Shown: positions 5,468 through 6,861, counted from the stretch's first letter. The stretch is DNA of 7,781 nucleotides from a virus (IMGVR_UViG_2529292923_000001); one strand, 5' to 3'. Made by a program: numbers and translations. The notes: generated by a model not told the origin, from the sequence alone.

Positions 5468-6664
5468 TTAAAATGGAACTGAACGATTATAGAATTTACC
5501 TGCAATCACCTGCCGATAAACATCCGGTATTGAAAATCTAATCTTCTCATCCTGTATATCCTCATGTCTGACAATGGCAGTAAATACCGCCTCATAATCA
5601 TTACCGAGAAGATGAAATAACTTTGCAACAGATTTAGAGCACTGCTTACGTAACCAGTGAACATTATGTTCCAGTGCATTAATTGCCTTTTTTTCGTCCG
5701 CTAAGTCAGGACGATAAGGATTAAACTTGCGTGGTTTAGCTGGATTGATTTGTGCAGCATAATCACACAATCCCGTAAAATAACCGGCAATATCAAGCAG
5801 TACATCAACAGGAACCCCTTTAAGCTCGACCTCAGAACGATTCCACGTACCACTGACTTTTTGTTCAAGCGCTTTATTATAGATACGCCAGTAAACACGC
5901 GATTGCCGGGAACCAAACGTGTACATCTCCTGCTTTAATAATGCGCGACCATCCCACTTACAGGAATTCGAAAAACCCGGACGCGGCCCCTTACCACTAT
6001 AAAACGCGCCAGAACGATGATCGCGAACAGCTGCATCGCATGTAAAAACACCATCGAAATCATCAACAGCCAAATCAATACGCTTGAGCGTAGTAATATT
6101 CAGATGTTTCAACCATTTGAATACATCCTGAGGCTCAGTACCACTAAATACATGAGCACATCCCAGACCGGAAATCTGTATATATACCGTGTTATTGTTT
6201 CCACCCCAGAATGCAAAGCCATGTAGATTATTACCGCCATCATCAGAAAATAATGGCGCAGAACAACGATAATTAAAGCCACCACGGTCCCGTTCAGGTC
6301 CCATACTCAAACCGAAAGCACTGGATAACCAGATTTTAAGGCGATGCAAATACGCAGCCTGAACAGCCTGATTATATTGTTCAATTTGATGTTCAATTAA
6401 CGCTCTATCGCCAGAAATACCGCTATAAATTTTATCTGATTCCGCATCATCAGGAACCCAGCATCGAGTTTCAGGATCAACCACATCACGAAAGAAGGCA
6501 TCACGACCGGGCAGAAAATCACGCAGACGCGGCATGGAACCATACTTACGCCAGAACTGAATAGCACCGTCGAAAGTCTCAAGATTCTTAAGCTCACTTA
6601 TTGGAAAAGTGAAAGCAAGATGGTCTATGAAGACGTGACGTATGGTTTCCTGAACCGGCTTCAT
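5468..6664 (-). CDS. rolling-circle replication initiation protein (pII / RstA-like)
   Basis: About 400-aa ORF with motifs [13 protein letters not shown] and [12 protein letters not shown]...RSEVELKG, remembered as typical of filamentous-phage replication initiators. The ORF is open from 6694, but the ATG at 6664 has a GGAGA Shine-Dalgarno and overlaps the upstream ORF stop (TAATG), so 6664 is the likelier start. Confidence 0.78.
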
Positions 6665-6861
6665 TAGCAAACAGTCTCCTGATAACCGACCCATGAACCA
6701 GAAGGCAGTGCAACAGATACCAGAACGAAGTCATCCCCGATTGTTTCAACGCATGCAATGAACAGCTCATTAAATGAGCTGAAGAAATCCCATTCACCAT
6801 CAATGCAGGCATTAACGCCATAATCAGGAATGTAATCGTAGTAAACAATCTCGTGAGACAT
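6664..6861 (-). CDS. hypothetical 65-aa acidic protein, translationally coupled to rep
   Basis: ATG at 6861. Encodes [65 protein letters not shown]. The stop TAA overlaps the rep ATG at 6664 (TAATG). Lies first in the minus-strand operon, just downstream of the predicted promoter. Confidence 0.4.

Follow-up and report, generated by a model that had tools for sequence, protein, structure and literature searches.

A conserved gene for a small acidic protein directly precedes the replication initiator gene in a filamentous prophage of Escherichia coli

The DNA analyzed here, 7,781 bp from the virus IMGVR_UViG_2529292923_000001 (the window, numbered throughout from its first letter), is one complete CTXphi-like filamentous prophage inserted at the dif site of Escherichia coli. 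On its minus strand, immediately ahead of the gene for the replication initiator Rep, lies a 65-codon open reading frame (ORF) that comes first among the genes read from the prophage's early promoter. Comparison with related elements indicates that this frame is very probably a genuine, selected protein-coding gene, that Rep starts at position 6664 and that the operon is arranged as described below. The fuller account, which joins the gene, the rep start and the operon to partial translational coupling and to a part for the small protein as an accessory of the replication module, is one that we judge right on balance, if by no great measure. The features on which the argument turns are as follows.

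6861..6664, minus strand: the small acidic-protein gene (ATG at 6861-6859, TAA at 6666-6664), a member of the phrog_3104 family and first cistron of the early/rep operon.
5468..6664, minus strand: rep, encoding a 398-amino-acid (aa) rolling-circle replication initiator of the Rep_trans (RstA-like) type, whose start is the ATG overlapping the upstream stop.
6666-6662, minus strand: TAATG, in which the small-gene stop (6666-6664) shares its last A with the rep ATG (6664-6662).
6679-6675, minus strand: GGAGA, the rep Shine-Dalgarno (SD) sequence, within small-gene codons 61-63 (Gln-Glu-Thr) and 10 nt before the ATG.
6694-6692, minus strand: an upstream ATG in frame with rep, a chance product of the Ser56-Trp57 codons TCA TGG and not the rep start.

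An initial sequence-only reading of this DNA had described a 65-residue acidic protein, and its composition agrees: the product has an isoelectric point of 4.05, contains six Asp and five Glu residues but no Lys or Arg, and carries a net charge of -11. Acidity runs through the family, with a net charge of -5 to -13 and few basic residues in all 20 members tested. That reading had recognized no motif in the protein and had proposed a homology search. The absence of a motif holds for Pfam and NCBIfam, neither of which matches the 65-aa protein, but not for PHROG, where a hidden Markov model search identifies it as a full-length member of phrog_3104 (residues 1-65 against profile positions 1-69 of 69; E 8.4e-25, 87.7 bits). 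RefSeq/PGAP already annotates the product as a 'hypothetical protein' (WP_000017776.1/WP_000017777.1), and 32 of 5,426 complete E. coli genomes carry annotations of the same or a nearly identical protein. The family is thus already annotated, conserved and uncharacterized; full-text searches of the literature returned nothing on phrog_3104, and GenBank records of phage isolates held no DNA or protein match to the window, the small protein or a Proteus homolog.

Larger searches outlined a narrow family. A profile search of 5.8 billion proteins recovered 42 clusters at 90% identity, nearly all of 60-84 aa and either unnamed or 'hypothetical', from E. coli, Proteus, Providencia, Xenorhabdus, Photorhabdus and Scandinavium, and a further member resides on a 10-kb Citrobacter 'plasmid' that resembles a replicative form. 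Nothing outside this family, and no homolog beyond inoviruses, emerged when 1.84 billion representatives were scanned exhaustively with HMMER; the matching proteins were all of 40-73 aa, apart from one repetitive 539-aa match judged spurious. One family member (locus L020) is found in an actinomycete assembly, on an 8.4-kb contig (contig44) of a record titled Actinomadura monticuli; its surroundings are those of an enterobacterial-type inovirus, and the occurrence is probably contamination of that assembly.

Evolutionary rates indicate that what is conserved is the protein. Pairwise ratios of nonsynonymous to synonymous substitution (dN/dS) among eight members range from 0.06 to 0.46 and mostly lie between 0.1 and 0.25, which marks purifying selection on the amino-acid sequence, and variable alignment columns fall 24/16/45 across the three codon positions, an excess at the third. 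These two measures also favor the 65-codon frame over a 103-codon frame on the same strand (6905..6594) that overlaps it, which we rejected; on the plus strand, no ORF of at least 40 aa overlaps the 65-codon ORF. A cis-acting DNA element within the ORF, such as a nick or recombination site at the conserved IVYYDY codons, was likewise discarded, as synonymous positions vary throughout except in the SD codons. Across 38 sequences, five residues are invariant and eight nearly so; hydrophobic and aromatic residues are conserved, and the confident predicted fold is kept, at identities of 33-80%.

Two AlphaFold2 runs, with 8 and 38 sequences, converged on the same model (predicted local distance difference test score, pLDDT, 81-82), in which strands at residues 4-11, 15-20, 23-27 and 45-49 and a helix at residues 30-41 form a beta-beta-beta-alpha-beta arrangement. 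The compact core (residues 4-49) is modeled at a pLDDT of ~90, whereas the tail (residues 50-65) is of low confidence, with values of 50-60 over the last 15 residues; it is this floppy C-terminal tail whose codons hold the rep SD. Neither a match in the PDB nor one to a known fold was found. The order of elements recalls the N-terminal domain of HicB and RNase-H-like cores, a relationship that we set aside because its scores do not rise above noise and a HicA partner is lacking. The term 'leader ORF', which the sequence-only reading applied to the gene, accordingly undersells a protein that is under purifying selection and has a confident predicted domain fold.

We also considered whether the small protein might be a detached N-terminal domain of Rep or the product of a programmed frameshift, and rejected both, in that the family proteins are small, only one suspect fusion is known and no slippery heptamer is visible near the small-ORF stop. 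In that fusion (P0039, 115 aa, from a 2.7-kb metagenome contig), a small-ORF homolog is joined to the N-terminus of Rep (VKIDYLAFSFPL...); since no other fusion occurs among the 1.84 billion representatives, a frameshift error is its most likely origin.

The downstream gene encodes a protein that matches PF02486 (E 1.9e-21) and phrog_453 (E 4e-107) and is 33% identical to CTXphi RstA over 95% of its length. The sequence-only reading had placed a TAATG overlap at its beginning, had preferred the ATG at 6664 to that at 6694 because only the former has a GGAGA SD, and had made the small ORF the first cistron of the rep operon; all of these statements withstand comparison with relatives. The ATG at 6664-6662 is in frame with the 398-codon Rep_trans ORF ending at 5468, and its GGAGA is predicted to pair with the anti-SD at -7.4 kcal/mol, where only 8.6% of 163 minus-strand ATGs reach -6.5 kcal/mol or better. 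Most of 21 distinct relatives have GGAGA or GGAGG 6-10 nt 5' of the rep ATG (-6 kcal/mol or stronger in 18 of the 21 loci), and the junction ATG itself is present in every one of them.

Were rep instead to start at the upstream ATG, the 65-codon frame would simply overlap the 5' end of rep and no coupling would take place. The 6694 triplet does share the rep frame, and no ATG precedes it in that open stretch, but it has no SD (-2.2 kcal/mol) and is not conserved: relatives encode Ser56 by TCA, TCG, TCT, TCC or AGT, so that variation in the third base of this codon converts the ATG to GTG, TTG or CTG. Furthermore, RefSeq/PGAP, which independently annotates the small gene, begins rep at the overlap ATG, and alignments of Rep homologs begin after 6664. 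A start at 6694 is therefore scarcely credible, and the start at 6664 is retained in what follows.

The codons that carry the rep SD bear a mark of their own. Of 15 sequences, 14 encode Glu62 by GAG; by contrast, of the other three conserved Glu positions, two mix GAA and GAG freely and the third favors GAA. Judged from this alignment, the GAG bias, together with the placement of the SD in conserved C-terminal Tyr-(Gln/Arg)-Glu codons, is the synonymous-site footprint expected of a functional SD. The distance from the small-ORF stop to the rep start is similarly constrained, lying between a 13-nt overlap and a 1-nt gap at all 21 distinct loci; the junctions in relatives take the form of TAATG or TGATG, of overlaps of 4, 8, 10, 11 or 13 nt, or of a 1-nt gap. 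Where co-directional genes of prokaryotes overlap, they do so most often by 1 nt or 4 nt, and other gene junctions in this compact prophage genome are also tight. The stop/start overlap is thus ordinary in itself, as is the gene architecture, and would alone merit no special attention; it is the conservation of the junction that exceeds chance.

Translational coupling between the two genes appears plausible and probably non-obligatory. The SD of the small ORF is weak (-3.0 kcal/mol, GGUG at a spacing of 5), as it is in most relatives, while that of rep is strong and falls within the final codons of the small gene; ribosomes ending at the TAA would, we propose, already be placed on the rep ATG by virtue of the overlap and the embedded SD. 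The outcome would be partial coupling, and the strong rep SD, the lack of predicted junction structure and the existence of Phage_GPA-type Reps that lack the ORF altogether together suggest that it is not obligatory. A 121-nt RNA spanning the junction folds at -30.1 kcal/mol, equal to the shuffled mean (z 0.00), with no structure predicted to occlude the rep start; the 5' leader likewise shows no hidden RNA element (fold z-score 0.09), and the sole Rfam match is a chance one elsewhere (E 0.85). Whether coupling contributes substantially to Rep synthesis we put at an even chance.

Known replicons furnish a precedent for a more extreme arrangement, in which only the translation of the 65 codons would matter, delivering ribosomes to the rep start or exposing it, and the peptide would have no function. 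In tap-repA of R1 and repY-repZ of ColIb-P9/IncB, as here, a short ORF runs up to or into the start codon of rep, so that ribosomes finishing it can supply initiation at rep. For those plasmids it makes no difference what the peptide consists of; RNA structure or a pseudoknot hides the rep start, and translation of the leader is under the control of an antisense RNA. The retention of the stop/start overlap in every locus fits such a role, and the weak SD of the small ORF could set a low ceiling for Rep synthesis. Unlike the plasmid leaders, however, the prophage ORF encodes a conserved protein, with hydrophobic and aromatic residues and a confident fold maintained under purifying selection, and it is followed by a rep gene whose strong SD is free of predicted structure. 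A purely translational role is consequently very improbable.

Upstream of the small gene lie a putative promoter, candidate operators and a divergent regulator gene.

6924-6895, minus strand: a predicted promoter-like site for the small-ORF/rep operon (TTTACA, 18-nt spacer, TATGAT; 10/12 match to consensus).
6884-6892 and 6927-6935: two copies of the palindrome GCGCATGCG, bracketing the promoter-like site and the only exact copies in the window.
6999..7211, plus strand: a divergent gene for a 70-aa basic protein of ribbon-helix-helix-like appearance (phrog_2503, E 1.5e-27; WP_000712390.1).
6841..7200: an exchangeable immunity cassette, bounded by mosaic breakpoints, that comprises the presumed repressor gene, the candidate operators, the promoter-like site and some seven codons (~7) from the start of the small ORF.

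The promoter-like site would leave a 5' leader of ~27 nt, although such sites are no more numerous across the region than in shuffled sequences. The only plus-strand site of this kind (6853-6880, 9/12 match) is directed at the repressor gene, and here too the count does not exceed that of shuffles. The palindromes are conserved in loci L005 and L007 and are candidate operator sites for the divergent protein, itself a presumed repressor by analogy of position, as its gene occupies the site that rstR has in CTXphi. A phrog_2503 gene is the divergent neighbor of the small ORF in eight of nine other loci tested; at the Proteus locus L069 the neighbor belongs to phrog_5219.

Alignment to two relatives delimits the cassette. 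Against L007, a Phage_GPA-type phage, the window is 90-100% identical per 30-nt bin from 7200 to 6841 (100% in 10 of 12 bins), yet only 53-70% identical in the ORF body beyond 6841 and unrelated in rep. Against L003, from E. coli AST217, the pattern is reversed: the cassette (7170-6841) is unrelated, whereas identity is 93-100% from 6840 onward. These breakpoints define the exchanged unit as the repressor-like gene, the GCGCATGCG palindromes, the promoter-like site and about seven codons, leaving the body of the small gene on the rep side of the boundaries at ~6841 and ~7200. In several independent prophages, IS110-family transposase genes sit directly upstream of the small ORF or rep (L004, 3774-4727; L013, 1588-2562; L055, L057 and L060, ~400-966; L067, 161-847); as the transposases replace the repressor/operator region, a preferred IS110 insertion target there is suggested.

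Taken together, these features suggest how the small gene could operate. A single mRNA from the promoter-like site at 6924-6895 would carry the small gene and rep along with the phage genes that follow, and this early promoter is probably controlled by the divergent phrog_2503 repressor-like protein. The small protein, made together with Rep, is predicted to be cytoplasmic. With few or no basic residues, DNA binding seems implausible and binding to another protein most likely; the product would then act as an accessory modulator of the early replication module, targeting Rep or another early DNA-binding protein. This role in replication is tentative, and the considerations that lead us to favor it are the invariant adjacency to rep and the breakpoints that keep the ORF with rep. 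In all recovered loci, which belong to inoviruses of Enterobacterales, the ORF comes first after the divergent small gene and rep follows immediately, a position that is fixed from E. coli to Xenorhabdus at protein identities of 33-45%. A search with the Rep_trans Rep yielded nine viral contigs (Rep 46-100% identical), all nine of which carry the ORF, and the identity of the small proteins rises with that of Rep (Spearman 0.68), no pair being discordant.

Several observations weigh against a dedicated partnership with Rep. The tracking of Rep identity may merely reflect physical adjacency. The family is also paired with two unrelated initiator families, Rep_trans and Phage_GPA (L007, L035-41): a subfamily of 81-84 aa, 51-55% identical to the window protein, precedes a 666-aa Phage_GPA protein, and specific binding to Rep is hard to reconcile with this pairing. 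Of 15 viral contigs that match the GPA Rep in full or nearly so (78-98% identical), six carry the ORF and nine lack it, and L005 is a natural deletion in which only the first codons of the ORF remain; the ORF is hence dispensable at least in the GPA lineage. Such natural variants without the ORF (L005, L053 and others) show that a Phage_GPA-type Rep can be independent of it, and coupling may contribute little, since the rep SD is strong and unstructured.

These same facts bear on two other functions, in each of which the small protein would act elsewhere than on replication itself. In the first, the acidic protein would inactivate the phrog_2503 repressor-like protein, or host LexA, and so lock the early promoter on, a Cro-like role achieved by protein-protein antagonism, as with RstC, AbbA or CarS. 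It would be the first product of a presumably repressor-controlled promoter, the phrog_2503 gene is its divergent neighbor at nearly all loci tested, and in Phage_GPA-type phages the ORF occurs only with cassette types A and B, whose repressors share the basic C-terminal tail EELKKKKAM; its strong acidity also fits known small DNA-mimic anti-repressors. The ORF body, however, lies outside the exchangeable cassette, so that the same body (93-100% identical) serves two repressor/operator sets; phrog_2503 repressors also occur without the ORF (L053, L062), and Proteus L069 pairs the ORF with a phrog_5219 neighbor. Homology to RstC was rejected (hhalign probability 1.7% over 11 columns), and RstC, the anti-repressor of RS1 and the single small accessory regulator known from the CTXphi family, lies after rstB, unlike the 65-aa gene. 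We consider an anti-repressor function unlikely.

In the second, the gene would be a host-directed 'moron' encoding a DNA-mimic-type inhibitor of a host DNA-binding enzyme or defense, such as a restriction enzyme, uracil-DNA glycosylase, nuclease or nucleoid protein, and its place at the head of the early operon would allow the inhibitor to be made once the incoming single strand becomes double-stranded. Its facultative presence among nearly identical Phage_GPA-type phages, its association with two unrelated Rep families, its negative charge and scarcity of basic residues, and its small size without detectable homologs outside inoviruses or a known fold all suit this idea; a small, narrow-family, fold-orphan profile is typical of phage counter-defense proteins. 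A fixed place before rep from E. coli to Xenorhabdus would nonetheless be unusual for a mobile accessory gene, and no defense-related match emerged, PADLOC, a library of defense rather than anti-defense systems, having not been searched. This function, too, we regard as doubtful. Overall, an accessory of the replication module ranks first, an anti-repressor-like switch second and a host-directed inhibitor third.

The resemblance to small acidic inhibitors that mimic DNA or bind proteins has its limits. AbbA, CarS, Ocr, phi29 p56 and Ugi are, like the small protein, short, strongly negative, expressed early and devoid of DNA-binding residues, but no similarity in sequence or fold to any of them was found, and the likeness is compositional only. 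A more speculative reading, which we think less likely than not, is that filamentous phages of Enterobacterales have in the small protein a third, previously unrecognized component of their lysogeny/replication switch, a DNA-mimic-like first product of the early promoter that binds an early DNA-binding protein. Candidate targets would be the ribbon-helix-helix-like repressor, Rep or host LexA or HU; the interaction would set whether the phage replicates, and the stop/start overlap would fix the ratio of small protein to Rep.

Other replication operons offer partial parallels. In copG-repB of pMV158, a small first-cistron protein likewise shares its transcript, which starts at a repressed promoter, with a rolling-circle initiator. 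That protein, CopG, is of the ribbon-helix-helix type, is basic and represses its own promoter. The first-cistron protein of the prophage, by contrast, is acidic and without basic residues, and the ribbon-helix-helix-like candidate is encoded by the separate divergent gene. The rstR-rstA-rstB region of CTXphi shares the RstA-like Rep (33% identity, PF02486), a divergent small regulator, integration at dif and an exchangeable immunity cassette bounded near the start of the replication operon. It differs in that no ORF lies between rstR and rstA, where the prophage inserts the 65-aa gene, and in that the repressor-like protein here belongs to phrog_2503 rather than to the RstR family. Papers on UPphi and Ypfphi, filamentous phages of Enterobacterales, describe no gene between repressor and rep.

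For annotation, these results settle the rep start at 6664 and establish the small frame as very probably a real gene in a prophage of enterotoxigenic and other human E. coli. They also draw attention to a conserved uncharacterized family at the most regulatory position of the element, between the immunity region and the replication initiator, in a type of dif-integrating filamentous phage that affects virulence in Vibrio and Yersinia. If the protein controls replication or immunity, it would be a component missing from the CTXphi paradigm; if it inhibits a host factor, it would be a new small counter-defense protein.

The prophage itself can be placed precisely. Of 5,426 complete E. coli genomes, 32 carry this element in the chromosome as a prophage (96-99.9% identical), the enterotoxigenic strain E24377A among them. 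Its neighbors in strain AST240 are hipA and a LysR-family gene, with flanks GGTGCGCATAATGT...(phage)...AGTGCGCATAATGTATATTATGTTAAAT and with GTGCGCATAATGT repeats at the E. coli dif site bounding it at both ends; from these flanking sequences, the window corresponds to exactly one prophage unit, from crossover point to crossover point at dif (window 1-14 and 7703-7781; L001 7505-7600 and 15441-15468). An intact dif is on the LysR side. Close to the junction on the hipA side, a perfect 14-nt hairpin (7728-7741/7753-7766) is flanked by a dif-like sequence corresponding to the XerD arm (7781-7762) and by a dif-like site in inverted orientation (7731-7703), a layout that recalls the folded single-strand attP of CTXphi.

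The minus-strand genes follow the usual inovirus order, with only the small divergent regulator (6999-7211) named on the plus strand: after the regulator come the 65-codon ORF, the Rep_trans initiator, a 111-aa protein, small coat-like proteins, a 507-aa adsorption-like protein with Gly/Thr/Ser repeats, a DUF2523 (pVI-like) protein, Zot/pI and a secretin. At ~1530-2491 (around 1590), the zot/pI-like gene falls into two pieces, one of 241 aa and a 75-aa frame, while AST240 has a single 352-aa gene; alignment of the region to L001 shows a ~90-bp gap and small indels, and the copy in the window may for these reasons be assembly-defective. The adsorption-protein-like gene (2862-4385, minus strand) contains a long run of Gly-Thr/Gly-Ser repeats, and its product varies in length from 507 aa in the window to 543 aa in AST240 and 442 aa in E24377A; spurious long ORFs rich in Pro/Val and in Arg/Val/Gln/Ala occupy the opposite strand and other frames of this region.

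Downstream of the repressor-like gene and in the same orientation, a 46-aa hydrophobic ORF (7553-7693, plus strand) is a conserved small membrane protein, with counterparts of 56-57 aa in the same place in E24377A (WP_001409659.1) and in the GPA-type phages L053, L056 and L062. Between the two, the segment 7290-7500 has a G+C content of 52-56% within a 44% G+C phage and gave no match in Rfam. It contains a tight hairpin (7297-7320) and direct repeats, CCGTCCTC(G/C)(A/T)CCC, at 7390 and 7429, and could be an origin, a packaging signal or foreign DNA.

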